From assembly GCA_963833985.1 (NCBI GenBank), contig CAWIAD010000001.1, positions 1,344,001-1,408,000 on the forward strand: DNA of 64,000 nt, in the 5' to 3' direction. Below, one piece after another: positions 17,293 to 44,729 of this stretch. Position 1 is the stretch's first letter; each line of letters opens with the position of its first letter. The notes under the pieces are model-generated. The model saw only the letters and a list, made by a program, of their open reading frames with translations, was not told the origin of the DNA and did no database searches. A program made the position numbers and the translations under genes. This stretch comes from an uncultured Planctomycetaceae bacterium (GTDB lineage: Bacteria > Planctomycetota > Planctomycetia > Isosphaerales > Isosphaeraceae).

Positions 17293-17540
17293 GGGTTAAC
17301 CTACTGCCTATATGTTTAGTCCGACTTCACTATACTACGGGCGAAGGGATCAAGGCAATAGGGGCTTCATCCTTTATGTAAACCATACGCTCGTATTGAG
17401 TTATGGCGTGTTGGCGTGGAGGTCACGAAAGTTCAATAATGGCCACAACCTGCCGATTCACCCAACGCCAGCTCACCTCGTGCAGACGATATAGACAGGA
17501 CGGGCCTCATGTGCAGCTTCATCGATTTGACGTAAGCTAT

Positions 17541-22772: not shown

Positions 22773-22907
22773 GCAGATAGTCTGAGAGCGAAAGCAACTG
22801 GGTCAACTCATGCGGAATAGTCGAGCATCCCGCCGTGAGCATTGAACGCGATTCAGACGTAGAAAGCCCTTCGACGTGCTCGTCCAAGGGAGGTTTCTAA
22901 AAACAAG

Positions 22908-22995
22908 CGGAGGGGGTGGGATTCGAACCCACGGACAGGCGGAACCTGTCAACGGTTTTCAAGACCGTCCCGATCAACCACTCTGGCACCCCTCC
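22908..22995 (-). tRNA. tRNA-Ser(TGA)
   Basis: GGAGGGG acceptor, ACGGT-CT-TGA-AA-ACCGT, long variable arm, GGTTCGAATCC, discriminator G. Confidence 0.97.
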
Positions 22996-23565: not shown

Positions 23566-24023
23566 CGCGAGGAAGAGGGCCGGGCTGGCGCGACCTCGCG
23601 GCCCGCCATGTGGACGCCTCCGCACACCGGGAGGTTCGCACCGATCCGGAGCGGCCTCGGCTTCAATGGGGAACTCCGCGGCCCGATCCCGGAATCGTCA
23701 CGGGCCTCTGGCCGCAGCGCCGGAGTGGCGGGCGAGTCCCGAGCCGGCAGGTCCGGTGCCGCGCTGCTGGACCCGGGCGACAAGGCATTCTGGCGGCAGA
23801 CCTTTTGCTACGATGCGCAGAACCGCCAGGTCCGTCCACTCGGCAGAGCGAGATTCTTTTGCCGCGTGCGACTGCGGACGCTACGCTTTCGCCGTCTCGT
23901 GCCCGACATGGTGAGCCGGGTGGCATTGCAAGCCAGGGAAGCCCGGACATGTCCGGGGACAGGCCCGGTTCACGTCGTGTGCGCGTCGTCGGCGCCCACT
24001 CTCCTGTGTCCTGGAGGCCTGAA

Positions 24024-24344
24024 ATGCAAGCGACCGTTGTGATGCTGATCGCCCTCAGCGGGCTGGGCTGCCACCACAAGTGCTGCGAGGCGAACCAGGT
24101 TGTGCCGCAAGTTTGCCCTGCGGTCTGCACCCAGAGACTGTTCGCCGTCGATTACATGACTATGGTCGAGCCCTCTTGCTACAGCCCCTGCATCGGTCCC
24201 TACTGCGGGGGTGCCAACTGCTGCGGCGGGACGGGCATGACCCGGGACGGCTACGGACCCGCGAGCGGCGGTTACGTGGGCTGCTATGCCGGTGGCGCGA
24301 TCGGCTGCGGATGCACGCGCTTTCCGCCGCACGGCAGTCCGTGA
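24024..24344 (+). CDS. Small exported Cys/Gly-rich protein (106 aa, 13 Cys)
   Basis: GGAGG SD; MQATVVMLIALSGLGC signal/lipobox-like start; CC, CxxxC and CGC motifs. Confidence 0.7.
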   Translation: MQATVVMLIALSGLGCHHKCCEANQVVPQVCPAVCTQRLFAVDYMTMVEPSCYSPCIGPYCGGANCCGGTGMTRDGYGPASGGYVGCYAGGAIGCGCTRFPPHGSP

Positions 24345-25082: not shown

Positions 25083-25751
25083 GTGGAGAACCTGGCTGTG
25101 CCCCTACTGTTCACCGAGCGTTTTGACTACTGGACGCGCCGCACGATCATCGGCGCCTTGGCCGCGGCCCTGCTGGCTCTGGTGGCTCTGTACTACTACG
25201 CACCCCAGCAATACACCCGTGTGGGTTACGCCCCGGTGCAGCCTGTGCCGTTCTCGCACGCGCAGCATGCCGGGCAACTGGGCCTGTCGTGTCTGTACTG
25301 CCACACCGGCGTGGAAGAGTCTTCCGTGGCCAAGATCCCCGCCACACAGGTCTGCATGAACTGCCACCAGACGATCAAGGCCGAGAGCCCCAAGCTGGCG
25401 CTCGTGCGGTCGAGCTTTGCAACCGGCAACCCCGTGCCCTGGGTGCGCGTGCACAAGACTCCGGATTATGTCTTCTTCAACCACGCCGCTCACGTGAAGC
25501 GCGGGGTGGGTTGCGTGAGCTGCCATGGCAAGATCAACGAGATGGCAGTCGTGGTTCACGACCAGCCTCTGAGCATGGGCTGGTGTCTGGACTGTCATCG
25601 CCAGCCGGAGAACCATCTGCGGCCCGTGTCCGAGGCCACGAACCTGGCCTGGCGGCCCGACGAGGGTAAGAGCCAGCAGGATCTCGGCCTCTTCTTGAAG
25701 GCTCAGTACAGGGTGCAAGCCCCTGACCAGTGTGTAGGGTGCCACCGATGA
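25083..25751 (+). CDS. actA: Alternative complex III pentaheme cytochrome c
   Basis: TM anchor, QPVPFSHAQH, five CxxCH (CLYCH, CMNCH, CVSCH, CLDCH, CVGCH). Confidence 0.93.
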   Translation: MENLAVPLLFTERFDYWTRRTIIGALAAALLALVALYYYAPQQYTRVGYAPVQPVPFSHAQHAGQLGLSCLYCHTGVEESSVAKIPATQVCMNCHQTIKAESPKLALVRSSFATGNPVPWVRVHKTPDYVFFNHAAHVKRGVGCVSCHGKINEMAVVVHDQPLSMGWCLDCHRQPENHLRPVSEATNLAWRPDEGKSQQDLGLFLKAQYRVQAPDQCVGCHR

Positions 25752-28700
25752 CAGAGACAGAGCCGTCCAGCTCGAACCTGGAACCGCTGGCGATCCCCAC
25801 GGGGAAGGCCTACTGGCGCAGCCTGGATCACCTGGCGGACACGCCCCAGTTCCGAGACTGGATCGAGCGGCGGTTTCCCGAGTCGATGAGCGAGCTGCTC
25901 GCCGGCGGAGTGGACCGGCGCCGGTTCCTGCAACTGATGGCGGCCTCGATTGGTCTGGCCGGGCTGGCAGGCTGCCGCCGGCCCGAGATGAAGGCGCTGC
26001 CCTACGCGAAGTCTCCCGAGGAGGTGGTGCCCGGGCTGCCGAATTTCTACGCCACGGCCATGCCCCGGCGCGGTGGGGCGCTGCCCATCCTGGTCGAGAG
26101 CCACGAGGGACGGCCCACCAAGATCGAGGGAAACCCCAGGCATCCCGACAGCGGGGGATCTTCGGATGTGCTGGCGCAGGCCTGGGTCCTGGAGCTCTAC
26201 GATCCGGACCGCGCGGGCCCGGTGCGGCACTTGGGTGAGCCGTCCACCTGGAAGGATTACGACGTCTTCGCCGCGCAGCACTACGCTTCCCTCCGGCAGC
26301 GCAAGGGCAAGGGACTGCGGATCCTCAGTGAGGGACTGAACTCTCCCTCGCTGGACCTGCTTCGAGAGCACCTGCGATCCACCCTGCCAGAGGCAGGATG
26401 GCACGTGTTCGAGCCGGTCTCGACGTCGAACGCACTTGACGGCGCAGCGCTCGCATGCGGATCGCCGGTCCTCCCGCGGTTCCACTTCGACCGGGCCGAG
26501 GTGATCGTCTCTCTGGACTCGGATTTCCTGGGACTCGAGGAGGACGGCACGCGGCACCACCGAGGTTTCTCGCGCGGGCGGCTCGGCGAGGGGCAGGTGC
26601 CGGCGATGAACCGGCTGTACGTGGTGGAGAGCCAGTTCTCGATCACAGGCGGCATGGCCGACCACCGCCTCCGGCTCCCTTCCAGCCATGTACTGGATTA
26701 CACGCTGGCCCTGGCCCGGGCCGTCGCCACGAGCGACCCGGTCGTGCCCGCGCCGGGGAGCCCCCAGGCGCGCCTGCGCACCGCTCTGGAGCAGCGCAGG
26801 CCTTCGGTGCGGCTGGACGAGCGTTGGGTGCGCGAGGTGGCCGCGGACCTGAGGTCACGCCCCGGGAAGACGATCATCGTCGCGGGCCGGCGGCAGCCGC
26901 CTCTCGTGCACGCGCTCGCCCTGGCGCTCAACGACATGCTCGGAAGCCTGGGCAAGACGGTCGAGCTGCACAAGGCCCCGGGCCGTCCCGCCGCCGGGAC
27001 CATCCACGAGCTGGCCGGGGCCATCGATCAGGGCCAGGTGGAAACACTGGTGATACTGGGAGGCAACCCGGCCTACAACGCGCCGGCGGACCTTGCCCTG
27101 GCCGAGCGTCTCAAGCAGGTTCCCACCACCATTCGCCTCGGTCTGCACGCCGATGAGACCTCGCGGCTGGCCACGTGGCATCTCCCCCTGGCGCACGGCC
27201 TGGAGGCGTGGGGTGACGCCCGCGCCGGAAACGGCGCAGTGCTGCCGGTGCAGCCGCTCATCGAGCCGCTCTTCGAGGGGCGCAACATGCTCGAGGAGCT
27301 GGCGCGGCTGACGCAGTACGAGACCAGCTCCCCATACGAGATCGTCCGCCGCGCGTTCCGCAAGGTCAGTGGTACGAAGGACGCCGAGTTCGAGGCCGCG
27401 TGGCGCAGGTGCCTGCACGAGGGAACCAGCACCGCCGGCGCGGAGGCCTCCGTGCGACCCGCCGTCGCGTGGGACTCGGTGGCGCGGGCGGTCGGCGCCG
27501 CCGGACCGGGCACGGGACCGCTCTCGGCGTCGAACCTGGAGCTGGTGCTGGAACGCGACACCAAGGTGGACGACGGGCGGTTCGCCAACAACGGCTGGCT
27601 TCAGGAGCTGCCCCATCCCGTCACGAAGCTCTCCTGGGGAAACGCGGCGCTCTTCAGCCCGCGCACGGCGGAGGAGCTGGGCATCGTGGACGGCGACGTC
27701 GTTCGCCTGGAGCTCGACGGCCGGAGCCTCGAGACCGCGGCCATGATCTTGCCCGGACAGGCGGACCACTCCGTGGGGCTGGCGCTCGGCTACGGGCGTT
27801 CCGGCGCAGGCCATATCGGCCGGGATGTGGGCTCCAACGCGTACGCGCTGCGATCGTCAGGCGCGCCGGATCTCGCGCGGGGACTGAAGGTTTCCGGAAC
27901 CGGCAAGAAAGCCTCGCTGGCATGCAGCCAGGACCACTTCACGATGGAAGGGCGAGACCTGATCCGGGAGCTCACACTGGCCGATCTGATCGGCCCGCAC
28001 GAGACCGGCCACGCTCATGAGCCGGAGCTCCATGACATTCAGACCGTGCCGGTGTCCGCCGGCGAGCATCAGTGGGGGATGGCCATCGATCTGAATACCT
28101 GTACGGGCTGTAATGCCTGTGTGCTCGCCTGCCAGAGCGAGAACAACATTCCGATTGTGGGTCGGGACGAGATCCTCCGGGGGCGTGAGATGCACTGGAT
28201 CCGCATCGACCGCTACTTTGCCGGTGATCTGGAAGAGCCCGAGCTCGTGCATCAGCCGGTCGCCTGCATGCAGTGCGAGAAAGCCCCCTGTGAGGTGGTC
28301 TGCCCGATCAACGCCACGGTGCACGGCGAGGAAGGTCTCAACCTCATGGTTTATAGCCGGTGCATCGGCACCCGCTACTGCGCGAACAACTGCCCGTACA
28401 AGGTGCACCGGTTCAATTACTTCGACTACAACCAGCGGCCGCTGGACCAGTTGTGGTACGGGCCGCTGGCCGAGAAGGGGATGCCCGAGACCCTGAAGAT
28501 GCAGAAGAACCCCGACGTCTCGGTGCGGATGCGGGGTGTGATGGAGAAGTGCACTTACTGCGTGCAGCGGATCGAGCGGGCCCGGATCGGGGTCCATGTG
28601 GCCGCGGGGGGTGCGCCGCCGGGCAAGATCCCGGACGGGACCGTGGTGCCGGCCTGCGCCCAGGCGTGCCCGGCCCAGGCGATCGTCTTCGGCGACATCT

Positions 28701-28864
28701 CGGATCCCGGGAGCAAGGTCTCACGGATCAAGAACCAGGCGCACAACTACGACCTGCTCGGCGATCTGAACACCAAGCCGCGCACCTCCTACCTGGCACG
28801 GCTGAGGAACCCGAATCCCAGGATGGCCGCCGGAGCGGACGTGGCGGCAGGGGGGCACGCATGA
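25748..28864 (+). CDS. actB: ACIII molybdopterin-oxidoreductase-like/Fe-S subunit
   Basis: YWRSL, Tat DRRRFLQLM...[13 protein letters not shown]; Fe-S motifs [43 protein letters not shown]. Confidence 0.95.
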
Positions 28865-30828
28865 ACGGTCCGTCGGAAGAGCCGCTGGATCCTCCTTCCC
28901 TGGTCGCGGGAAGCCATGACTTCGGCTCCATCACCGAGATGGTCTGCGGGCTGGTGGAACAGCCAGCCCCGGCCTGGTGGTGGCTGGCCTTCCTGGTCTG
29001 CGGGGCCGTCGGCACGATCGGTGCGATCGCGACCGTTTACGTCATCTCGACGGGGCTGGGCATCTGGGGCATGAACCAGACGGTGGGCTGGGGCCTGCCC
29101 ATCGGAACCTTCGTCTTCTGGGTCGGCATCGGCCACGCCGGCACACTCATCTCGGCGATCCTCTTCCTGTTCCGACAGAAGTGGCGGTCCAGCCTGAACC
29201 GCGCCGCCGAGGCCATGACGCTCTTCGCCGTGGCCTGCGCGGGGCTGTACGTGATGATCCACATCGGCCGCGTCTGGATCGCCTGGTTCATGGTGCCGTT
29301 CCCGAACTCGAACGAGCTTTTTCCGAACTTCCGCAGCGCGCTTTCGTGGGATTTCGCGGCCATCTCGACGTATGGCCTGGTGTCGCTGATGTTCTGGTAC
29401 GTGGGGCTGATCCCCGACATGGCCACCTTGCGCAACCGCGCGAAGACCCGGCTGCGTGGCTGGATCTACGGCCTGCTGGCCCTCGGCTGGCGCGGCTCGG
29501 CGCGGCACTGGAACAACTACGAGATGGCCTACCTGCTCCTGGCTGGCCTGGCCACGCCCCTGGTGGTGAGCGTGCACACGATCGTGAGCTTTGATTTCGC
29601 GACCGCGGTGGTTCCGGGCTGGCACTCGACGATCTTTCCTCCCTACTTCGTCACGGGTGCGATCTTCTCCGGGCTGGCGATGGTGATCACCCTGCTGGTG
29701 CCCTTGCGCCGGCTCTGCCGGCTCGAGGACCTGATCACCGGCACGCATCTGCAAAATATGTGCAAGCTGATCCTGGTGACGTCGCTGATCATCGCCTACG
29801 CCTACGGGACCGAGTTCTTCATGGCCTGGTATGCCGGCAACCCGTTCGAGCAGTACACGTTCCGCAACCGGGTGATGGGGCCCTACGGCTGGTGCTTCGC
29901 GACCATGGTGCTGTGCAACGTGCTCTTGCCGCAGCTCTTCTGGTTCCGCTGGTTCCGGACGACGCCTTGGGCCATGTTCGTCATCTCGCTGTTCGTGAAC
30001 GTCGGCATGTGGTTCGAGCGATTCGTGATCGTGACGACGAGTCTGCACCGCGATTTCCTGCCGTCAAGCTGGAAGATGTTCTACCCCACATGGGTTGACT
30101 ACGTGCAACTGCTGGGCGGCTTCGGGCTCTTCACGACGCTGTTTCTGCTCTTCATCCGGGTCTTGCCGATGGTGGCCATGAGCGAGGTGAAGGCTTGCCT
30201 CCCGGCGGCCGACCCTCATTCCGAGGAGCATTGCGGGTTGGGCCGGGACGGAGCGGAGCAGGCCGGAGCGGTTGTCTCCGCGGTGGTGCGGCCGGCTTCA
30301 GGTCCCACTTTCGGGGTGCTGGCGCGGTTTGCCGGTCCGGGACCGCTGCTGAATGCGGCCCGGCGGCTGCACGCCGCGGGGTACCGGCGGGTGGACGCGT
30401 ACTCGCCGTTCCCGATCCACGGCATGGAGCGGGCGCTGCGGCTGCGCCGCTCGCTGGTGCCGGCATTCGTCTTCGCGGGCGGGGCGATCGGAGTGCTCTT
30501 TGCGCAGTGGGTCCAGCACTACCAGAGCTCAGTAGGCTACCCGGTGGTGGTCTTCGGAAAGCCGCTGGACAGCGCGGAGGCGTTCGTACCGATCAGCTTC
30601 GAGACGATGATCCTGTATGCCTCTTTCGCGTCGGTACTGAGCATGCTGGTGCTCAACGGCCTGCCCCGGTTCTACCATCCGGTGTTCCGCGGAAGGTCAT
30701 TCGCCAGGGCCAGCGATGATGGCTTCTTCCTTTCCGTCGAATCGCGGGACGATGTGTTCGGCCGTGAGGAAACGCCGGCCTTGCTGGCGGAGCTGGGGGC
30801 GACCGAAATCGAATTCCTGACAGACTGA
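28861..30828 (+). CDS. actC: ACIII ActC (NrfD-like) fused in frame to ActD (DUF3341)
   Basis: [43 protein letters not shown], then [10 protein letters not shown]...PISFE...NGLPRFYHP. Confidence 0.9.
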
Positions 30829-30925
30829 GGACCGTGTGCCGGTCTGGCCGGGGTTCGTTCTCCGGGGGGTGGTGTCGCGTGGCGTGCAGCGCGTTTCTTC
30901 ACTTGCGGATTGATGGGTGGCGGCG

Positions 30926-31582
30926 ATGCGATTGGTGATCTGTGTGCTGGTGCTGGCGACGGGCGTGTTCGTTTCCCTGATGGGAGTGCGGGGCACGATC
31001 AGCGATCGGCGGCCGCTCATGATCGTGCCGGACATGGTGGTCCAGCCGCGCTACGGCGCCCAGGATGAAAGCGCGTTCTTCAAAGACGGCCGGGAGCTGC
31101 GCACACCTCCCACGGGCACGGTGGCCTTCGGCGGGGCCGACTATGCAAGCGATGCGGGCGCACCGCGATTGAACCCCGATTTCCTCCAGGAGGATGAGCG
31201 CTACTACCGCGGCAAGCAGGGAACGGGGTGGGTGACCCGTCTCCCCGTGAAGCTTGATATGGACCTGCTCAAGAGGGGCCGGCAGCGCTACGAGATCTAC
31301 TGCGCACCCTGCCACGGCCTGACCGGGTCCGGCAATGGGCTCATGACGCAGTACGGCCTGGCGGGCGTGGCGACGATCACCGACGCGTTCCACGGCCTCA
31401 TGCCGGTGGGCGAGTACTTCAGCGTCATCAGCAACGGCAAGGGGAAGATGCTCGGCTACGGCGGCCAGATCAAGGTTGCCGACCGCTGGGCGATCGTGGC
31501 CTACATCCGCGCCCTGACTCGCAGCCAGAACGCGCGCATCGGCGATGTCCCGGAATCCAGGCGAGCGGAGCTGAACCAGTGA
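30926..31582 (+). CDS. actE: ACIII monoheme cytochrome c
   Basis: PDMVVQPRY...FFKDGR..RTPPTGTV; RGRQRYEIYCAPCHG; DRWAIVAYIRAL. Confidence 0.92.
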   Translation: MRLVICVLVLATGVFVSLMGVRGTISDRRPLMIVPDMVVQPRYGAQDESAFFKDGRELRTPPTGTVAFGGADYASDAGAPRLNPDFLQEDERYYRGKQGTGWVTRLPVKLDMDLLKRGRQRYEIYCAPCHGLTGSGNGLMTQYGLAGVATITDAFHGLMPVGEYFSVISNGKGKMLGYGGQIKVADRWAIVAYIRALTRSQNARIGDVPESRRAELNQ

Positions 31583-32777
31583 CCCATGCACGCCGGCTGA
31601 CCGACAGTGTGTATCTGCCCGGCGGGGGAGGGCGCATCGTGGTCGCGCTCTTCACCGCGCTGGCCCTGGCCGCCGGCGCCGTGTCGTGGTCCCGCTGGGA
31701 AAGCGACCCGCACCGGTGGCTCTTCTCGTACCTGGTGGCCTGGACCTTTCTGGTCACAATCGGCGTCGGCTCCCTGGCGTGGCTGATGCTCCAGCACCTC
31801 ACGCGCGCGGTCTGGTCCATCGTCGTCCGCCGTCTGCTGGAGAACATCGCCCTGGCCCTGCCGTTGCTCGCCGTCGGGTTTGTCCCCATCGCCCGCAATT
31901 TGCAGAGGATCTATGCCTGGGCAGACGCCTCGCGCGTCGCTGCGGACCCTGCCCTGGGCGCAAGGCGGCCTGGCTTGACCCCATGTTCTTCAGCCTGCGT
32001 GCAGCCCTTTACCTGGGGCTCTGGGCCCTTCTCGCCACCCTGCTGGGAAGCAGCTCGGCGCGCCAGGACCGAACATCTGACCCGCGCGCGAAGCAGCGCA
32101 TGCGGAGGCTGAGCTGCGCCGGGCTGCCGGTGCTCGCCGTGACCGCCAGCTTCGCCGGATTCGACTGGCTGATGTCGCTGGAGCCGCACTGGGCTTCCAC
32201 GATGTTCGGGGTCTACTTCTGGGCCCAGTCGCTGGTGTCTTCGCTGGCCGCGCTGATCGTGGTCGCACTGGTGCTGCGCGGCACCGGCTGGCTGCGCCAG
32301 ACCATCACTGTCGAACACCTGCACGACCTGGGCAAGCTGCTCTTCGGCTTCGTCGTGTTCTGGACCTACATCGCCTTCAGCCAGTATTTCCTCATCTGGT
32401 ACGCCAACCTGCCGGAAGAGACAAGCTGGTACATCGCGCACCGCATGGGTACCTGGAACACGCTGAGCTGGGCCCTGTGCTTCGGGCATTTCACGGTCCC
32501 CTTTTTCCTGCTCTTGTTCCGAAAGACCCGGCGCGATCCTTTCTGGCTGGGATTCCTGGCCGTCTGGGTGCTGGTTTTCCATTACCTGGACCTCTTCTGG
32601 GTCATCATGCCGACGCCGTACCCCGAGGGCGTCTTGCCCGACTGGCAGGACGCGTCGACCCTGGCCGCCCTGGTGCTGGCCGTCGGGGCGGTTGTGGCCC
32701 ATGGCTGCCGGGTGCGCGCACTGGTCCCGGTGGGCGATCCTCATCTTCCCGGGTCGCTCGCGTTCCGCAATCCATGA
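31579..32777 (+). CDS. actF: ACIII membrane subunit (frameshift near 31958)
   Basis: SYLVAW...QHLTRAVWS...RRLLE then DWLMSLEPHWASTMFG, HDLGKLLFGF..FWTY..FSQY..IWYANLPEET. Confidence 0.9.
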
Positions 32778-32789
32778 GGGGCGAGTCTG

Positions 32790-34394
32790 ATGTCTGCGGG
32801 TAGAGACCATTCCACACAATCGAATCAGGATGATCCTGACATGAGCGATCCATCCCGAGCACCGCGGACGCCATCCGGAACCGCGGACGAAAGTCACGAG
32901 AACGAGCCCCAGGCGGGCACTCATTCCCTGTTGCTGGCCCTGGTGCTGGGCCTCTTCAAGCTGGCCGGCGTGGCCTTGCTGGTTTACCTGACATACTTCT
33001 TCACGACGAGTTTCGCGAACCGGACCCCGCCGCCCCCGGCGCTGTCGGAGGACCAGCAGGCACTTGCAAAGAAGTCGGAGGATCTGCGGAACCAGGGGAA
33101 GAAGCTGCTGTCGTCATACGGGTGGATCAATCCCGCGGTCAAGAGCAGCGTGCGCATTCCCATCGAACGTGCCATGGAGCTGATTGTTGCCGAGGCATCC
33201 CAGCCCGCGCTGCCCCTGGCCGCGGCTGCCCCCGGCGCTGGAGCACCGGGGACTGCGCCAGCGGCAGCGGGCTCAGGCGTGAAACCGGCGACGGCCCCCG
33301 GAACGTCGACGCCCGTGGCGGCTGCGCCAGCGGCCCCGGCCGGCATGCCTCCCCAGGAGATCTACCGCGCGGTCTGCATGGCGTGCCATGAAGCGGACGG
33401 CAAGGCCAAGATCTTCCGGCTCGCCACGCCGGCCATCCCCGACCTTACCGACCCGAAGTGGCAATCTTCCCGCAGCGACGCCGAGCTCGAGAAGTCGATC
33501 CTTGAGGGCAAGGAATCCGTCATCAGGGGCGTGAAATCGACGGTCATGGTCTCGCAGAAGGAGAACCTGGCCCGGGCCGGTACGAGCGTCAAGGACATGG
33601 TGGCGTTCATGCGCGCCTTCAAGGGGGGCAAGCAAGTGGTCTCGGCCATTCCCGGTGGCATGCCGGCGGAAACCCAGGCGCCGCTGGCGGTGGCGTCCGG
33701 GCCCGCCGTCCCAGCACCCGCGGTGCCGCCGGCCCCTGCTTCAGCGGGGGGAAGCGTTCCACCTTCCCTTGCCATGACCACCACATCGGCTTCCGTCGCG
33801 GGCTCGGCGCCCGCCCCAGCCGGCCGTGCCGCGATGAGCGCAGGGCTGCCTTCCGCCGCGCCCGCGGCTTCCCTGTTGACGGCTGCACCCGGTGCGACGG
33901 CACCCGCGCAGGCCCCACGCATGGCCGCTGCCGGCACCACCTTGCCGTCCGCGCTGCCTTCCTCCGCGAATGCGGCTGCTGTCGCGGCCCAGGCGGAACG
34001 GCTCAGGCTGGCCTCAATGACCTTCAACACGCTGTGCATCGCCTGCCACGGTGCCGACGGGCGTGGCACCGCAGTCCGGACCGCAATGCCGCAACTTCCG
34101 AACTTCACCTTGCACGACTGGCACACCACCAAGAGCACCAGTCAGCTTGCCACCACGATCATGGAAGGCAAGGGCCTGATGCCCGCCTGGAACGCTCAGT
34201 TGACGGCGGACAAGGCGCGTGACCTGGCGCTCTATGTCCGCAGCTTCGGTGCTCCGGAGATGCTCGCCGAGACCCAGGCCGCCTCCGCCCCGTCGATGGC
34301 GGCCTTCGACAGCGAGATGCAGTCATTGCGGCAAAGCTTCGACGAGATCGAGAAGCAGCTCCAGGCGCTTTCGGCCGGAGCTGCCAGGCCATGA
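32790..34394 (+). CDS. Membrane-anchored ActG-like domain plus two c-type cytochrome domains on Ala/Pro linkers (start may be 32841)
   Basis: One TM helix; SYGWINP...VRIPIERAMELIV; CMACH and CIACH; long AP-rich spacers; C-terminal coiled coil. Confidence 0.8.
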   Translation: MSAGRDHSTQSNQDDPDMSDPSRAPRTPSGTADESHENEPQAGTHSLLLALVLGLFKLAGVALLVYLTYFFTTSFANRTPPPPALSEDQQALAKKSEDLRNQGKKLLSSYGWINPAVKSSVRIPIERAMELIVAEASQPALPLAAAAPGAGAPGTAPAAAGSGVKPATAPGTSTPVAAAPAAPAGMPPQEIYRAVCMACHEADGKAKIFRLATPAIPDLTDPKWQSSRSDAELEKSILEGKESVIRGVKSTVMVSQKENLARAGTSVKDMVAFMRAFKGGKQVVSAIPGGMPAETQAPLAVASGPAVPAPAVPPAPASAGGSVPPSLAMTTTSASVAGSAPAPAGRAAMSAGLPSAAPAASLLTAAPGATAPAQAPRMAAAGTTLPSALPSSANAAAVAAQAERLRLASMTFNTLCIACHGADGRGTAVRTAMPQLPNFTLHDWHTTKSTSQLATTIMEGKGLMPAWNAQLTADKARDLALYVRSFGAPEMLAETQAASAPSMAAFDSEMQSLRQSFDEIEKQLQALSAGAARP

Positions 34395-34414
34395 GCGGGC
34401 GGTTTCCGCTTGCC

Positions 34415-34960
34415 TCATGGCGTCATCTGGAACGGTCCCGGGCCAGCCGGCAGGGGCACGGCCTGCACCGGCGGATTGGCCGCCTCTTCCGCGGCCTTGG
34501 CCTGCGCGGCTGACTTGTCGGCCGCCTGGGACTCCTCACGCATTTCGGCAATCGGCTGTGAGAAGATCTGCCGCTTGGGCGAGGCCTCGATGGGCCCGCT
34601 TGCCGGCGGGATGTCGTGCCAGCGGCGGAAGAATGACTCGATCTTGGCCTGCTCCTCGCCGGTCATCAGGGCCCGCACTCGCATGTGGGCCAGCACGTTC
34701 TGGTAATTCGAGAACGGCCGTTCGCCGATTGAGCGCGCGTTGTGGCAATAGCCGCAGTACATGGAGAAGAGCTGGCCGCCAGTCACCTCGTCCTCCCACT
34801 TGCCGCTCAGCTCGTCTCCCTTCGGCAGCCGGAACCGGAAGGGAGCGGGCTTCTGGGAAACATCGACGGGCGGCGTGAAACATCCGACCGCGGGCAGGGC
34901 GAGGACGCCGAGAATCATCAGCCTGGCGACGGCTGACACGCCTTCACGAGGTCTCCGCAT
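34415..34960 (-). CDS. Lipoprotein monoheme cytochrome c
   Basis: Lipobox-like LPAVGC; GGQLFSMYCGYCHNAR; HMRVRA. Confidence 0.82.
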   Translation of the reverse strand: MRRPREGVSAVARLMILGVLALPAVGCFTPPVDVSQKPAPFRFRLPKGDELSGKWEDEVTGGQLFSMYCGYCHNARSIGERPFSNYQNVLAHMRVRALMTGEEQAKIESFFRRWHDIPPASGPIEASPKRQIFSQPIAEMREESQAADKSAAQAKAAEEAANPPVQAVPLPAGPGPFQMTP

Positions 34961-35091
34961 CGTCCTCGCTTCCATGCTTGAAGTTCCCGACATGAGTCTG
35001 GCTCCCCTCTCTCCTCGAAATCGTCCCTGATTTCGTTCACGGCGGCGTCTGGCCGGATCCCCTGACCGCAGGCGAGCCGGGATTCCGGAAC

Positions 35092-36681
35092 TCACCAGAA
35101 CCAGGCCCACTGGGCCATGAAGATGTTGTCATTGAGTTGATGGTGGACCTCCTGGTTGATCTCGTAGGCGAAGTGGACCACGTTGCTGGCGTAGAACCAG
35201 TAGTTCAGGCCAAAGGTATACTGATTCGTATCCACGGGTGCTCCCCCCGCCCCGAAGGTCGTCAGGTCCAGCTTCGCGTAATTGATACCGGTGAAGTTGG
35301 CGAAGCTGTACCGGACGACATACTCGACCTTGGAGAGAATCGGGGAGCGGTTGTTGTAGTCGCGGTAGGTGAGCTGTGAATAGAGTCCGCGACGTTCGAT
35401 GTTATTGCCGATCGACCCCTTGGCTTGCTGGTAGTTGTCAGCAAATTCCGTGAGGAAGTACCAGTTGCCCTTATGGTAGCTGAGGTCCCATCCCCAGAGC
35501 TGAAAGTGGTCGCGAACGCCAGGATTGTAGATGCCGTTGGAGTAGCCAGAGAAGCCCATGTTCAGCCCCCGCCTGGGCATCCAGAGCGCGAAACGGCCGC
35601 CGTAAGCCTGCGAGCTCACCTCTTCCGGCCCTCCGACGATGCCTCCGAGGTCGACCGACTGGGTGTAGTTTGAGGGGCTCTGGGCAAGCTGATAGCCGTT
35701 TCCAAAGTACATCTGGTAGGTCATCTTGATCGGTAGAGCGCCCAGGTAACTGGCTCCGCTGAGCTGGATGCCGTCGGTGGAGGACGCGGGTGAGACCTGG
35801 TTGAACATGAGCGGGGGATCCGGCAGACGGTTGATCCACTCGTGGTTGTACCAGAGGTTGAATTGTCCGATGGGCGTGAGGAACCTGCCGACGTTCAGCG
35901 TCATCCACTTGTTGAGCAAAACATCGATCTGGGCGTTGCCGATGCCAACGCCGGAGACGTTATTCAGATCGATGCTGGCTTCCGCCAGGAACCGCTTGTT
36001 GAGCTGAACGAGGAAGTAAGGAGAAACCTGCATCGTCGTGAAATTGCCGTTCTGCCCGTTCTGCTTGTTGTACCCCGCGAGCATCTGGCCGTAGATGCTC
36101 ACCGGCGTCTCGTTGTTGTAGTGTGTGTCGAACAGTTCCTTCAGGGGCGCCGGCAGCCGTGGGCCGTTGCGGATCTCGGTGTCCAGCCGTTCGCGCAACT
36201 CGTCGGTGGCCGCGGCCTGCTCCTGGTCGCGCTGGGCCGCTTGCTGGGCGCGCGACGAGAGCTGCTCGGTCTTGGCCTCCAGCTTGTCGACCGCCTGCGT
36301 TGACGTCGGCGCGACCGCCTGTTTCTTGAGCTGGTCGGCCAGCAGATTGGCGGTTTTCTGAAGGATCTCGATCTGCTTTTGCTGGAGTTCCGCGCGCTTC
36401 TTTTGTAATTCCATGTCGCGGGAGTACTGCTCCTTGAGAGCCTGGATCTCGCGTGCATTGCGGGCGAGGGCCTCTTGCAGGCTATCCTGGGGACCCGCAG
36501 CGGCGTTTGCCGGCGGGGCCGCCTGTCGCGGAGCCACGGGCTTTGCCGCGGTCGATGGGAGCGGGGCCGCCTTGATGTCCTGTGCAGTCAATGGACCATT
36601 CAAGGGCGCGGGAGCCTGAGCCTGGGCGGATCCCAGCCAGATCATGCATCCAATGAGCCCCAGGCCTATGCCGTGCCGCAT
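35092..36681 (-). CDS. Putative outer-membrane beta-barrel porin with N-terminal coiled coil
   Basis: Signal peptide ending AQA; Q/E/K/L coiled coil; amphipathic aromatic strands, VGRFLTPIGQFN, QYTFGLNYW; C-terminal AQWAWFW. Confidence 0.8.
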   Translation of the reverse strand: MRHGIGLGLIGCMIWLGSAQAQAPAPLNGPLTAQDIKAAPLPSTAAKPVAPRQAAPPANAAAGPQDSLQEALARNAREIQALKEQYSRDMELQKKRAELQQKQIEILQKTANLLADQLKKQAVAPTSTQAVDKLEAKTEQLSSRAQQAAQRDQEQAAATDELRERLDTEIRNGPRLPAPLKELFDTHYNNETPVSIYGQMLAGYNKQNGQNGNFTTMQVSPYFLVQLNKRFLAEASIDLNNVSGVGIGNAQIDVLLNKWMTLNVGRFLTPIGQFNLWYNHEWINRLPDPPLMFNQVSPASSTDGIQLSGASYLGALPIKMTYQMYFGNGYQLAQSPSNYTQSVDLGGIVGGPEEVSSQAYGGRFALWMPRRGLNMGFSGYSNGIYNPGVRDHFQLWGWDLSYHKGNWYFLTEFADNYQQAKGSIGNNIERRGLYSQLTYRDYNNRSPILSKVEYVVRYSFANFTGINYAKLDLTTFGAGGAPVDTNQYTFGLNYWFYASNVVHFAYEINQEVHHQLNDNIFMAQWAWFW

Positions 36682-37066
36682 TTGGAAGCCCTCGAAGAAA
36701 TGAGGCCTACGTCCGGATCGCATCGTGTCCGGACCGTCCACGCGAGAATCGGCGTGAGCGGATGACCCGATCCGGGCCATCCGCCACGCGAACAGCATCG
36801 TCAGGATCCCGGTCCGGCTCTGGCAGCATCACCAGGTGAGCCTGTCGGCTCGTCTTGGACCGGACGGTCGGACCGGGAACGATCGCGAGCTACCGGGCGG
36901 TGCTCTGAGTCGCCGCTGACAATATCGGTTAAACCGATCATTTCGATGAAATGGATTTTATGAAGTTTAAGGTTTTCTCACTCCGCCACGGGATGAGCGA
37001 AGCTCGAGACGCGAAAGACAAGTCGTCCGAACAGAGGCCGTAATGGTTTCGTTGTGGCAAGCCACG

Positions 37067-37100
37067 AAACGAAAAGGCCAGCCCCGTGGTGGGGCTGGCC
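37067..37100 (-). terminator. Intrinsic terminator after the cytochrome c gene
   Basis: 10-bp stem GGCCAGCCCC/GGGGCTGGCC followed on the minus strand by TTTTCGTTT. Confidence 0.75.
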
Positions 37101-37163
37101 CGTGATTGTCATGACTCGGCCGGACCGCTCGAGATTGAGAATACTTCAGGCTGCGGGCCCAGG

Positions 37164-37847
37164 TTACCGTGCAAAGGGAGTGGCGCTGGTGATACCTGCA
37201 TCAGGTGAGGGGAGACGCAGGGCGGCCTTCGGGGTGGCACCCGCCGCGGCACCGGGTGGGCTGCTGGAGGGAGCTTTTGGAGTGGACGCGCCACCGGCGC
37301 CGGCGCCCGCGCCGGCGGCCGCCGGTGCCTGGCCAGGCGGATTGCGCAGGACCGGCTTCGAGAGTTGCGTGCCGGGGACGAACGTCCGCAGGTAATGGGC
37401 GATGCCGTACGCTTCGTCGAGCGCGAGGGCGCCGCGGAACTGCGGCATCACCGCTCCCCGTCCTTCGATGATGATGCGCACGATGGCCGCGTCCGAGCGG
37501 TAGTTCTGCCAGCGCACGTCGGTGAAGTCCGGAATACCGGGAATGTCCCAGACTCCACGGCCGTCCACTCCGTGGCAGCGGATGCAGTACCTGTTGAACA
37601 GGTTCATGGAAACGGTTTTTTCCTGCTCCGGACTTCGCATCCAGTACCAGGCACCGCCGTTCAATGTCTCGATCTGGCCTGGCGGTACATGCTTGTGGCC
37701 GAAGTGTTTGTCGAAAATCGAGCCCCACGCATGATCGTCGCCGAGTGTGGGACAGCTGCCGACGGCAAGTAACACAACCGTGAGCACGGCCGAGATCAGC
37801 CCTGTCAGCAGCGTCGCGGTTCTGTGAGAGTGCGCGGACAACCTCAT
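37164..37847 (-). CDS. Exported monoheme cytochrome c (c6/cbb3-III-like)
   Basis: AGGAGG SD; signal peptide; LFNRYCIRCHGVDGRG, PDFTD, EGRGAVMPQF. Confidence 0.87.
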   Translation of the reverse strand: MRLSAHSHRTATLLTGLISAVLTVVLLAVGSCPTLGDDHAWGSIFDKHFGHKHVPPGQIETLNGGAWYWMRSPEQEKTVSMNLFNRYCIRCHGVDGRGVWDIPGIPDFTDVRWQNYRSDAAIVRIIIEGRGAVMPQFRGALALDEAYGIAHYLRTFVPGTQLSKPVLRNPPGQAPAAAGAGAGAGGASTPKAPSSSPPGAAAGATPKAALRLPSPDAGITSATPFAR

Positions 37848-39167: not shown

Positions 39168-39545
39168 TCACGCGACGATATGCGGCACGCCATAGGCGGA
39201 AACATGGGGATCACGGCTGACCAGCTTGAAGCCCTCGTGCCGCGCCTGAGCGATCAGCAAGCGGTCGAACGGGTCGCGGTGATGATCGGGAAGTGTCTGC
39301 ACGGTCAAGGCGTGTGGAATGGTCACGGGGAGGGGCAAAAAGCGGTTGGCCGCCATCATCGCTTCCAGGTCGTCGGGGGAGTCCAGCTTGTGCAGGGAAC
39401 GCTTGATGCTGATTTCCCAGATGACGGCGGCACTGATGTAAACGGTGTTACTGCCGTCGCCAATCGCCCTGCGGGCCGCTCTGGACAGGAGCTGCGGATC
39501 GTCCAGCCACCAGAGGAAGACGTGGGTATCGAGTAAAAGTGTCAT
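39168..39545 (-). CDS. vapC: VapC PIN-domain toxin
   Basis: LLLDTHVFLW, SAAVIWEI, HRDPFDRLLIAQA. Confidence 0.93.
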   Translation of the reverse strand: MTLLLDTHVFLWWLDDPQLLSRAARRAIGDGSNTVYISAAVIWEISIKRSLHKLDSPDDLEAMMAANRFLPLPVTIPHALTVQTLPDHHRDPFDRLLIAQARHEGFKLVSRDPHVSAYGVPHIVA

Positions 39546-39781
39546 TGCGGCTTGATGCCGAAGGCGGCTGCGATGTCATCGGGCAGGGTGTCGAAGTCCT
39601 CAGCGATACGGACGCGGCCTTTCCATTGCCCGCCGTGCCGGGGTGAATCATCGGCGTGGATCGGGACCAGCCGGACCACCGGCCGACCGGCCTTGGCGAT
39701 GATGACCTCTTCGCCGTTCATGGCCTGCTCGACCAGCTTCGAGAGCTGCGACTTGGCTTCGTGAATGTTGGCAATCTCCAT
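39542..39781 (-). CDS. Phd/YefM family antitoxin
   Basis: NIHEAKSQLSKLVE...GEEVIIAKAGRPVVRLVP. Confidence 0.93.
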   Translation of the reverse strand: MEIANIHEAKSQLSKLVEQAMNGEEVIIAKAGRPVVRLVPIHADDSPRHGGQWKGRVRIAEDFDTLPDDIAAAFGIKPQ

Positions 39782-39792
39782 GGGCACCTCCT

Positions 39793-39804
39793 GCTTAGCT
39801 AAGC
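39793..39804. promoter_or_regulatory. Palindromic TA operator candidate
   Basis: Perfect palindrome GCTTAGCTAAGC just upstream of the antitoxin SD. Confidence 0.5.
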
Positions 39805-39965
39805 CTAGCTCAATTCGCTGTTCTTGACAAGCCCAGAATGCGAGCGTGCGTGCGTTTGCCCGCCCATACAGGTAACGCGAAAGAATCCCTTTATTTCCCG
39901 CTACCGCCTTGGTCTGCTAACCAAAGCGTAGAAACGCTCGGCAGGAGGAACGAGAGGCAGGTGAC

Positions 39966-40229
39966 ATGAACATCAGCTATGAAATACCCCGGGACATCGA
40001 GCAAGAGCTTCGCGCCAGCCGCCCGGACATCAACCGAGAGGCGAAGGAGGCCTACCTGATCGACCTCTATCGCCAGGAACGGATTAGCCATCGCCAGCTC
40101 GCCGACGCGTTGGGGTTGAACCGCTACGAGACCGATGGGGTATTGAAGCGGCACAAGGTCTCGCCGAACGTCACCGCCCAGGAGATGCGCGCTCAGGCCA
40201 CGGGTCTCAAGGATGCGAGGCCGGAGTGA
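39966..40229 (+). CDS. UPF0175 family antitoxin
   Basis: LYRQERISHRQLADALGLNRYE..GVLKRHKV. Confidence 0.85.
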   Translation: MNISYEIPRDIEQELRASRPDINREAKEAYLIDLYRQERISHRQLADALGLNRYETDGVLKRHKVSPNVTAQEMRAQATGLKDARPE

Positions 40230-40744
40230 TTGTCGTCTCCGATACGACACCCCTGAACTACCTCATCCTGATCGAAGCGGCTCAGGTGCTCCCCGCCCTG
40301 TTCGGCGGGGTGTATGCACCGACGGCGGTGATGGAGGAGCGATCGCACCCGCGCGGTCCTCAGCCTGTCCGAGTCTGGGCCAGTTCACCTCCCGAGTGGC
40401 TCGTCGTGCAGGAGCCCACCCGGGTTGACGAGACGTTGCCCAAAGCGCTTCACAAAGGGGAGGTGGAGGCCATCTCCCTCGCTCAGGAGATGCGGGCTGA
40501 CTGGGTCCTGATTGACGAACGGAAAGCGTCGAGAGAGGCCGAAAGCCGTGGCCTCCGGGTCGCGGGGACGCTCGGCATCCTCGAAGAAGCAGGGGCCAGG
40601 AATCTTCTCGACTACGAGAAGGATCGAGACCGTCTCGTCAACGAGACGAACTTCTATGTCACGGACGACGTGCTCCGCGAATCGGAGCGTCGATATCACG
40701 AGCGAAAGCAAGCCCAGGAACAAGAACGGAAGACCCATGAGTAG
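40226..40744 (+). CDS. DUF3368 PIN-domain protein (toxin)
   Basis: VVSDTTPLNYLILI, LHKGEVEAISLA, VLIDERKA, GTLGIL; GTGA overlap. Confidence 0.88.
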   Translation: MIVVSDTTPLNYLILIEAAQVLPALFGGVYAPTAVMEERSHPRGPQPVRVWASSPPEWLVVQEPTRVDETLPKALHKGEVEAISLAQEMRADWVLIDERKASREAESRGLRVAGTLGILEEAGARNLLDYEKDRDRLVNETNFYVTDDVLRESERRYHERKQAQEQERKTHE

Positions 40745-41843: not shown

Positions 41844-44674
41844 CTATCCCTTGGCGATCAGGGCCGACACGGCGGTGCGCTGGGATTCGAGGTCGGCCAG
41901 CCTGGTCCGCTGGCTCTCGACCACCTCGGCTGGGGCGCGTGAGAGGAATGCCTCGTTCCCGAGCTTGGCCTGAAGCGGGCCGATCTGGCGTTCCAGGTCG
42001 GTGAGCGTCTTGCGCAGGCGTTCCAGCTCGGCTTTCCTGTCGATCAGGCCTGCGAGCGGCAGGATGATCTCGGCGTCGGCCAGAACGGTGATGGCGGCAT
42101 CGGCGGGTCGGGCCGGATCCGCGGTGATGGTGACATCGGCCGCGTTGGTAAGGCTCTTCAGGAACGCCTCCCCCTGACGCAGGCGATCGGCGACGATGCC
42201 TTCCGCCACGATCCGCGGCGCGATGCGCGCCTCCTTGGGGACATTGCGCTCGGCCTTCAGGTTCCGGAGCGCCTGGATCTTCTCCTGCCACTGGGCGACA
42301 GTCGCCCGCGCCTCGGGGTCGGTCCAGCCCAGGGGCACGGGCCAGGCGGCAATGCAGGCGCTCGGCTCGGCGGTCACCGGCTCGGGCAGCCCGCGCTCGG
42401 GTGCCAGCGCGCCGAGCGGCTGCCAGATCTGCTCCGTGAGGAAGGGCATCACAGGGTGCAGCAAGCGGCAGAGGGTGTCCAGGGTGGCGGCCAGCACGCG
42501 CTGGGCCACGGGCCGGGCGTCCGGGTCGCGGAGCCTCGACTTGATGAACTCCACGTACCAGTCGCAGAACTCGCTCCAGGTGAATTCGCGGAGCCGGCGG
42601 GTCGCGTCCGAGAAGCGGAAGGCTTCCAGGTCGGCGGTGGTCTCGGCGATGACCTCGTCCAGCCCCGCCAGGATCCAGCGGTCCTCGATCGGCAGGGTTG
42701 CCAGCTTGAGCGGAGCCGGCGCATACCCCTCCAGGTTCATCATGGCGAAGCGGGCGACGTTCCAGAACTTGTTCGCGAAGTTGCGGCCCTGCTCGAACCG
42801 CTCCGAGGTGTTGATGGTGCGGCCATCGGGCAGCTTCAGCTTCTCGACGGGCATGCGCAGGTCCTGCGTCTCGGTGGCGCCCAGGGCGAGGGTGTACCGC
42901 AAGGCGTCGGCGCCATAGATCTCGATGATGTCCACCGGGTCGACACCGTTGCCGGCCGACTTGGACATCCGCTTGCCCTGGCCGTCCTGGATGACCGGGT
43001 GGATATAGACGTCGCGGAACGGCACGTCGCGCATGTTGAACTGCCCGAAGATGACCATCCGGGCTACCCAGAGCGTGATGATGTCGCGGGCCGTGGAGAG
43101 CACGCTGGTGGGATAGCAGCGCCCCAGCTCGGGCGTCGCGGCGGGCCATCCCAGCGTGGAGTGCGGCCAGAGTGCGCTGCTGAACCAGGTGTCAAGCACG
43201 TCGGGATCGCGAACGAAGCCCAGGTGTTCCAGCGCGCTGACGAGGTTGGGCTGCTCGTCAGGGTCCTGAATGCAGGCGTATGCCACGTCGTCTTCGATTG
43301 TGTACCAGACCAGGTCGCCGGTGGCCGGGTCGGCGTCGGAGCCGGTTTTCATGTCCTTCAGCCGGCTGGAGACGGGGCCCGGATTGTCGAGCCGCCAGAT
43401 CGGGATCTGGTGCCCCCACCAGAGCTGGCGGCTGATGCACCAGTCGCGCTTCTCGGCCAGCCAGTCAAGGTAGCTGCGGGCGTACCGCTCGGGGTGAATC
43501 CGCACCTGGCCCGACGTCACGGCATCCATGGCCTGCTGGGCGAACCCGGGGCTGCCGTCGGGCTCGTCGCCCATGCGGATGAACCACTGGTCAGAGCGGA
43601 TCGGTTCGATGGCCGTCTTGGAGCGGTCGGAGTGTCCCTGCCGCAGCAGGTGCGGGTCCACGCGTTCCAGCAGCCCTTGCAGCTTGAGGTCCTCGACGAC
43701 GCGCTTGCGGACGACGTAGCGGTCCAGCCCCGCGTACTTGCCGGCCGCCTCGTTGAAGGTGCCGTCGGGGTTCATCAGGTCGATGATCGGCAGATTGTTG
43801 CGCTGGCCGGCCTGGTAGTCGTTCGGGTCGTGACCGGGGGTAACCTTCACGCAGCCGGTGCCGAACGCCGGGTCGACAAGTACGGGATCGGCGATGATGG
43901 GGATCTGCCGGCCCGTCAACGGCAACTCGGCCTGCTTGCCGATGAGGTGCTGGTAGCGCGGATCTTCGGGATGGACGGCAACGGCCGTGTCGCCGAGCAT
44001 GGTCTCGGGGCGCGTGGTCGCCACGTGCAGGACGTCATCGGAGCCCGCGATCGGGTACTTGATGGTCCAGAGGTGGCCGTTCATCTCTTCATAGTAGATC
44101 TCGTCGTCGGCCACGGCGGTGCGGAGCTGGGTGTCCCAGTTCACCAGCCGCTTGCCGCGGAAGATCTTGCCGGCCTTGAAGAGGTTGAAGAAGGTGCGCC
44201 GGACTCGCGCGAGCAGCCCTCGTCGAGCGTGAACCGCGTGCGCTCCCAGTCGCACGAGCAGCCCATGAGCCGAAGCTGGCTGAGGATCCGCTTCTCGTAC
44301 TCGTCCTTCCAGGCCCAGATGCGCTCGACCAGGGCGGGGCGGCCAAGGTCGTGTCGGGTCTTCTTCTCCTCCTCGAAGAGCCGCTTCTCGACGACCGCCT
44401 GGGTGGCGATGCCGGCGTGGTCGGTGCCGGGCATCCAGAGGCAGTCGAAGCCCTGCATCCGCCGCCAGCGGACCAGCACGTCCTGGAGCGTGTTGTTCAG
44501 CGCATGACCCAGGTGCAGGGCGCCTGTGACGTTGGGCGGCGGGATCACGATGCAGTAGGGCGGCCTGTCGCTGGCCGGGTCGGCATGGAAGTACCCGCGT
44601 TCCAGCCAGTGCGCATACCAGCGCTCCTGGGCTTGCCTGGGATCATACTGCTTGGGAATGTCTTGACTGTTCAT
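41844..44674 (-). CDS. valS: Valyl-tRNA synthetase (frameshift near 44205)
   Basis: PPPNVTGALHLGHA, GTDHAGIATQ, ATTRPETMLGD, DWCISRQLWWGH, DVLDTWFSS, RMSKS, C-terminal coiled coil. Confidence 0.96.
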
Positions 44675-44729
44675 GGTGCTCCAGCGCCGTTCCGCGATCT
44701 CAGGTCCTCATGCCCGTCCGCGTGTCTCG

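Follow-up and report, generated by a model that had tools for sequence, protein, structure and literature searches.

A role for alternative complex III (ACIII) as the quinone interface in surface electron transfer is a long-standing proposal, based mostly on its co-occurrence in iron oxidizers. The described systems closest to the locus analyzed here are oxidase-linked ACIII, Cyc2, and the multiheme porin complexes, which are treated in the accessible parts of PMC5566968, PMC5615132, PMC10732223, PMC9040806, PMC13741234, PMC6344600, PMC8406198, PMC5928083, and PMC6295460; the first of these puts forward, in the part available, a Cyc2-Cyc1-ACIII model for iron oxidizers. In this study, we examined an act operon for ACIII and the genes facing it in a 64,000-nucleotide stretch (the window; positions 1,344,001 to 1,408,000 of the forward strand of contig CAWIAD010000001.1, assembly GCA_963833985.1) from an uncultured Planctomycetaceae bacterium placed by GTDB in the Isosphaeraceae. 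An original prediction, made from the sequence of the window, had taken this locus for a candidate trans-envelope electron conduit. We found that a member of the ACIII family is joined here to a cytochrome-porin module that is neither Cyc2 nor MtrAB, and that this is a real, conserved feature. The module consists of a predicted outer-membrane barrel (POR), a lipoprotein cytochrome c (LIP), and a predicted exported class I cytochrome c (X), proteins left unnamed by Pfam and NCBIfam. No description of the module was found in the literature searched, although subscription journals and supplements lay mostly outside the search and a listing in a survey table is possible. The reading that we favor, tentatively and at somewhat less than an even chance, is that the module occupies the oxidase slot of ACIII, with menaquinol as the electron donor and a small dissolved compound at the outer membrane as the oxidant.

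Results

For the synteny analysis, 78 loci were taken from GTDB genomes and, of 312 in metagenomes, the best 80; 124 of the total were close (planctomycete-type) and 34 distant, and the loci are related, some being duplicates or near kin. The LIP gene lay directly 3′ of POR in 135 of the 137 loci with enough flank, and in L052, one of the two misses, LIP was present on inspection of the open reading frames (ORFs). X was found in 64 of the 74 close loci having 1.5 kb upstream. Act genes accompanied the module in 39 of the 124 close loci and Rieske/cytochrome b genes in 10, leaving 75 with neither, 67 of which were short on one side; for the 34 close loci flanked by 6 kb on either side, the corresponding numbers were 22, 4, and 8. 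Porin-act linkage recurred in at least six gene orders, one-strand operons included (L041, L050, L119, and L123), and therefore goes beyond chance; chance adjacency was also ruled out by conservation in dozens of loci. The link of the porin and its cytochromes to quinone-reactive complexes is conserved. Among the findings that the original prediction had named as speaking against it were porin and cytochromes not conserved next to act, and a porin that clusters with solute porins and cannot dock a cytochrome. The synteny contradicts the former, as act and the porin-cytochrome genes remain neighbors in rearranged loci and in two ACIII clades; of the latter, the clustering with solute porins is structurally the case, as described below.

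Queries for Cox, Cco, SCO, and CtaA taken from the source genome gave no matches in the 124 close loci. As a positive control, the same queries detected cox (18) or cco (2) genes 3′ of actF in 20 of 20 ordinary act operons, which were hand-picked from high-scoring rows on long contigs. At the source locus, no oxygen reductase genes follow actF/G, which places it outside oxidase-linked ACIII and bears out the predicted absence of cox, cco, and SCO genes 3′ of the act operon.

Furthermore, the partner of the module varies. Heme domains are fused to ActG at the source locus and to ActE in a second clade (four hemes); elsewhere they sit on the C terminus of cytochrome b (three hemes), next to a Rieske gene. 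In the distant loci L052, L074, and L080, NrfC/NrfD-type genes are followed by cytochrome, POR, and LIP. Three kinds of quinone-reactive complex are interchanged beside the module. Of 301 genomes sampled in the class, 223 carried actD and 21 carried POR, with only four candidates per genome scored for the latter. In a family sample, two actD genes occurred in 10 of 19 POR-positive versus 2 of 45 POR-negative genomes, and in POR-positive genomes with a second act copy, the other copy was oxidase-linked in all five checked. The porin-linked ACIII is often a second ACIII copy. As a check, the original prediction had proposed looking for a second, oxidase-linked act operon in the source genome; none was found there, and the locus is its only ACIII. 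In a quick ActC tree of 48 rows, from which broken copies and 11 duplicate regions had been dropped, POR-linked copies formed two clades of 17 and 11 rows, each with 100% SH-aLRT, apart from the cox-linked copies. In L171 and L172, act operons are followed by ccoO (with a ccoN match only in L171), and L171 is the nearest neighbor of the source locus's clade in this tree.

Judged by its sequence, the act operon is that of a genuine ACIII. The six conserved subunits, ActA to ActF, are all present in one cluster, with five CxxCH motifs in ActA and one in ActE, the pentaheme plus monoheme composition of ACIII. ActA matched a QrcA-type model with E 5.6e-23, below that model's cut-off, and has an N-terminal hydrophobic helix; ActB matched TIGR04519 above cut-off and QrcB and QrcC below cut-off and contains Fer4 domains. 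ActC matched 6F0K_C with E 1.3e-174, and its W77, H134, D164, and D245 correspond, as counted by hand from this alignment, to W82, H139, D169, and D253 of Rhodothermus marinus; a Trp, a His, and two Asp are named as quinol-site residues in the available text of PMC5928083, and these are kept here. The equivalent of Ser245 was also retained. At ActC residue 131 (Pro136 in R. marinus numbering), the members of this porin-linked clade all have Val (15 of 15) and the others all have Pro (30 of 30), a change that may tune quinone binding.

The diheme gene at the end of the operon encodes 534 residues, in which Ala/Pro linkers connect one membrane helix at the start with two cytochrome c domains of class I. 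Because of this helix and a weak match of residues 55-135 to ActG (8K9E_G, E 0.027), the protein is likely ActG carrying two cytochrome domains. X and the two tethered domains were each other's best matches among the 187 heme-motif ORFs of the genome, as expected of the three paralogous domains that had been predicted, whereas LIP lies outside this set and matched only itself. The PD(L/F)TD motif proposed as common to the set is exact in two domains (PDLTD and PDFTD), but the third reads PNFTL.

An AlphaFold2 model of POR computed with 54 homologs (mean pLDDT 76.5, the helices being less certain) shows a 16-strand barrel with one loop folded inward and, at the N terminus, two helices (57 and 44 residues). 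Its best structural matches were OprO (Z 27.3) and OprP (Z 27.2), the next being at 24.3; Cyc2 likewise models on OprO/OprP, according to the accessible part of PMC8406198. POR itself had no Pfam match, and PF07396 gave weak, sub-cut-off matches in 6 of the 54 homologs. Four Arg of the barrel are invariant in the homolog alignment. CxxCH is absent from POR, and its partner cytochromes have 1, 1, and 2 such motifs. The Gly-Cys of the LIP lipobox was found in 89 of 89 aligned homologs and Met104 in 88 of 89. LIP had no Pfam match, and its low-confidence model (pLDDT 65.6, pTM 0.33) gave no clear fold match (best Z 4.4). Two matches to longer LIP forms both read as frameshift run-ons, and an apparent porin-lipoprotein fusion in L037 was due to an assembly gap.

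At E 1e-30, a profile of the barrel collected 518 clusters; at 1e-3 it collected 3261, a set that probably includes other porins. Among the best 150 representatives, 133 were near full length, and 15 of these carried an N-terminal class I cytochrome on the barrel; cytochrome-barrel fusions also occurred in L079, L084, and L204. These natural fusions support a predicted physical link between porin and cytochrome. The Cyc2 motif AxPxFAR[QK][TY], which precedes CxxCH according to the available text of PMC8406198, was found in none of the 150 representatives and none of the 187 heme-motif ORFs of the source genome. Membership in Cyc2 was rejected, with the motif missing and no N-terminal CxxCH fusion on POR. 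On a Legionella anisa plasmid (L204:6708-10894, NZ_CP082853.1), a triheme cytochrome-barrel fusion is followed by a lipoprotein-type diheme cytochrome. On an Alteromonas plasmid (L203:8920-19065, NZ_CP147980.1), a distant porin and a lipoprotein-type cytochrome lie between copC/copD and a NiFe hydrogenase cluster. Loci L053-L085 include Chthoniobacterales and Ca. Udaeobacter with cupredoxin, cytochrome, porin, and small cytochrome and with no complex III nearby.

The genes predicted as actA-B-(C:D)-E-F are all there, but actF is not in one piece: relative to related loci, a one-base deletion near 31957 breaks it into two frames. In 23 of 27 related loci, actF is in a single frame; among the four exceptions, L046 shows a gap at this very position, within a CCTGG word. 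CCTGG is a known long-read error site. Single-copy valS is also in two frames (window 41844-44690, minus strand), indicating that the assembly carries indel errors, and cydA is split too (G000:C2:5603858-5605124). Therefore, the actF break is likely an assembly error, as judged from these sequences. That the cluster is decaying or a chance grouping, or else forms an MtrAB/PioAB-like heme wire to minerals or electrodes, is highly improbable. The frameshifted actF would suit decay and the porin adjoining cytochromes would suit a wire; however, the cluster is conserved in dozens of loci and the valS frameshift points to assembly error, while the barrel has 16 strands with an in-folded loop, no multiheme partner is present, and no PF11854 match was found in a scan of the genome. 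An MtrAB-type wire was rejected on the last three grounds. Of the conduit originally envisaged, the linkage of the module to quinone-reactive complexes stands, but a wire of the MtrAB/PioAB type is not supported, given 16 strands and four hemes beyond ACIII; an arrangement resembling that of Cyc2 suits the locus better.

Elsewhere in the source genome (10.16 Mb in two contigs, 96% complete) are one operon each for an aa3-type and a cbb3 oxidase, a bd oxidase, and two loci with cytochrome b. At G000:C2:2443069-2449340, a second cytochrome b gene adjoins a protein of 1262 residues that has 8 heme motifs.

ORF, Pfam, and NCBIfam scans placed the act genes, the diheme gene, both cytochromes, and the barrel where they had been predicted (Table 1), and the convergent arrangement with a 20-nt gap between the diheme and LIP genes was confirmed. 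The predicted terminator between X and POR exists as a hairpin with a T tract, but it is no general barrier, as a strict hairpin scan after X detected a terminator in just 9 of 67 related loci and it is therefore not conserved. No FNR-, CRP-, or sigma-54-type boxes were found upstream of actA, POR, or X.

Table 1. Features of the act operon and the facing module (window positions)
Feature	Position	Strand	Evidence
actA, membrane-anchored pentaheme cytochrome c	25083..25751	+	5 CxxCH
actB, Tat-type molybdopterin-like domain and Fe-S domain	25730..28864	+	TIGR04519 above cut-off, Fer4
actC:actD fusion	28861..30828	+	NrfD and ActD Pfam; 6F0K_C match
actE, monoheme cytochrome c	30917..31582	+	CAPCH; PF13442; operon position as in relatives
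actF, split	31579..32777	+	two frames, 31579-32112 and 31686-32777
Likely ActG with two fused class I cytochrome c domains	32790..34394	+	CMACH, CIACH; two PF13442
LIP, monoheme lipoprotein cytochrome c, unnamed family	34415..34993 (ATG 34993)	-	CGYCH; lipobox
POR, predicted 16-strand OprO/OprP-type outer-membrane barrel	35092..36681 (ATG 36681)	-	AlphaFold2 model
Intrinsic terminator-like hairpin between X and POR	37067..37101	-	hairpin 37101-37075 and T tract
X, predicted exported class I monoheme cytochrome c	37164..37847 (ATG 37847)	-	CIRCH, PF13442, hydrophobic N-terminal segment

Upstream of actA, a small Cys/Gly-rich ORF with a signal-like start and no Pfam match lies at 24023-24344 (plus strand); a tRNA-Ser is at 22907-22995, just upstream of the region, and a tRNA-Leu at 17540. 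Downstream, 39168-40744 holds a PIN-domain gene and a weak DUF3368 match.

Discussion

Alongside the observed gene content, conservation, missing adjacent oxidase genes, partner exchange, and natural fusions, we propose the following electron route. Quinol would be oxidized at ActC, and electrons would pass through ActB and ActA to ActE, then to the two flexibly tethered hemes on ActG. From these, the paralogous exported cytochrome X would carry them to LIP at the porin mouth, where a metal ion, chelate, or shuttle fitting the OprO-type pore would be reduced at the pore; the long N-terminal helices of POR may form a periplasmic stalk. The outward direction is suggested because this is the normal chemistry of ACIII and because the module stands in place of a terminal oxidase. 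For Cyc2, the accessible part of PMC8406198 argues that a cytochrome could not span a pore as narrow as one of 16 strands; for the same reason, the reacting partner here is probably small and dissolved.

Several points weigh against this route. The locus counts are not independent, and the quick ActC tree is compatible with a single origin of the POR-linked copies. actF is broken as assembled. No complex III accompanies the module in 8 of the 34 close loci with good flanks or in most of the distant ones; 22 of the 34 distant loci have a cupredoxin close by, and CusA/CzcA pumps (L029, L048, L082, and L110), DUF3347, or DUF2231 adjoin the module in some loci. Direction, substrate, expression, localization, and porin-cytochrome binding are all putative at this stage. 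The structural neighbors of POR are solute porins, OmpM1 included, and the sole act operon of the genome could feed its unlinked aa3-type, cbb3, and bd oxidases. These last two points suit a locus with no electron exchange at the outer membrane, in which the periplasmic hemes serve unlinked oxidases or enzymes and the barrel is a co-regulated anion channel or an OmpM-like tether; the only ACIII needs an acceptor, and convergent orientation and the terminator separate the two units at the source locus. Such a locus would, however, leave unexplained both the near-invariant POR-LIP pair across phyla and the repeated cytochrome-barrel fusion, and domain scans of POR detected no SLH or other wall-binding domain, so we consider it quite unlikely.

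The metal-related neighbors just mentioned, together with cupredoxins and the copC/copD genes on the Alteromonas plasmid, would instead fit metal handling, most likely of copper, in which the hemes would oxidize or reduce an ion on its way through the pore, serving detoxification or uptake, with complex III no more than the electron source or sink. Yet such neighbors are rare in close loci (cupredoxin in 2 of 124, CusA/CzcA in 3 of 124), no metal genes stand beside the source locus, and a dedicated ACIII paralog would seem a large investment for detoxification; we consider metal handling unlikely, with copper nonetheless a serious rival candidate. Electrons might also run in the reverse direction, from dissolved Fe(II), Mn(II), or Cu(I) to the unlinked cbb3/aa3 oxidases and, uphill, through ACIII to quinone. 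The barrel type and the periplasmic monoheme layout are as in Cyc2, the Cyc2-Cyc1-ACIII model provides a precedent, the genome has a cbb3 oxidase, and the conserved Met ligands would suggest high-potential hemes. The cupredoxins adjoining distant members recall rusticyanin. Against this inward uptake, the Cyc2 motif is missing from the module, the 150 representatives, and the heme ORFs of the genome, and the described relatives of the hosts live as organotrophs, which would hardly require reverse electron flow; it is doubtful, in our view. Outward respiration through the porin thus stays our tentative preference, and taken jointly with inward uptake and metal handling, electron exchange with an outside compound is quite probable.

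ACIII as the quinone interface becomes a proposal testable with defined genes through the porin-linked ACIII paralog and its exchange of partners with Rieske/cytochrome b and NrfCD. If the module does move electrons at the cell surface, a large group of soil bacteria now seen as plain aerobic heterotrophs would join metal or humic redox cycling. It is possible, though we would not yet call it probable, that periplasmic class I cytochrome, OprO-type barrel, and lipoprotein cytochrome form a multi-phylum class of modules able to plug into whichever quinone-reactive complex is present, where a terminal oxidase would otherwise stand; abundant soil and peat heterotrophs (Isosphaeraceae, Gemmataceae, and Ca. 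Udaeobacter) would then have a low-heme electron route across the outer membrane. In the boldest form of this idea, the LIP heme would be surface-exposed and the two monoheme cytochromes would sandwich the barrel.

Compared with the oxidase-linked ACIII of R. marinus (6F0K) and Flavobacterium johnsoniae (6BTM), the locus shares the actABCDEF order, the five plus one hemes, and the ActC equivalents of Trp82, His139, Asp169, Ser245, and Asp253. It differs in the fused C:D, in the lack of an oxygen reductase cluster after act, in an ActG with two extra cytochrome domains, and in the Pro136 to Val change. The phosphate-selective porins OprO/OprP are the best fold match of POR (rmsd 3.4 over 313 residues), but the identity is 13-14% and POR is almost always paired with heme proteins. 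Like MtrAB/PioAB/MtoAB, PCC3, and PCC4, the module combines a porin gene with genes for exported cytochromes c and has a quinone-reactive partner in the inner membrane. In the accessible descriptions, the barrels of those systems are larger and their cytochromes multiheme (in PCC4, with 4, 5, and 10 hemes), whereas the module has a barrel of 16 strands and cytochromes with one heme or two. From Cyc2 it differs in the missing motif, in cytochromes encoded by separate genes, in an extra lipoprotein cytochrome and the long POR helices, and, in relatives with a fused cytochrome, in that this is a full class I domain. With Cyc2 it shares the 16-strand OprO/OprP-type barrel, monoheme cytochromes and, in those relatives, a cytochrome fused to the N terminus of the barrel; by this analogy, the module would likely function as a split Cyc2 that trades electrons with small solutes at the pore.

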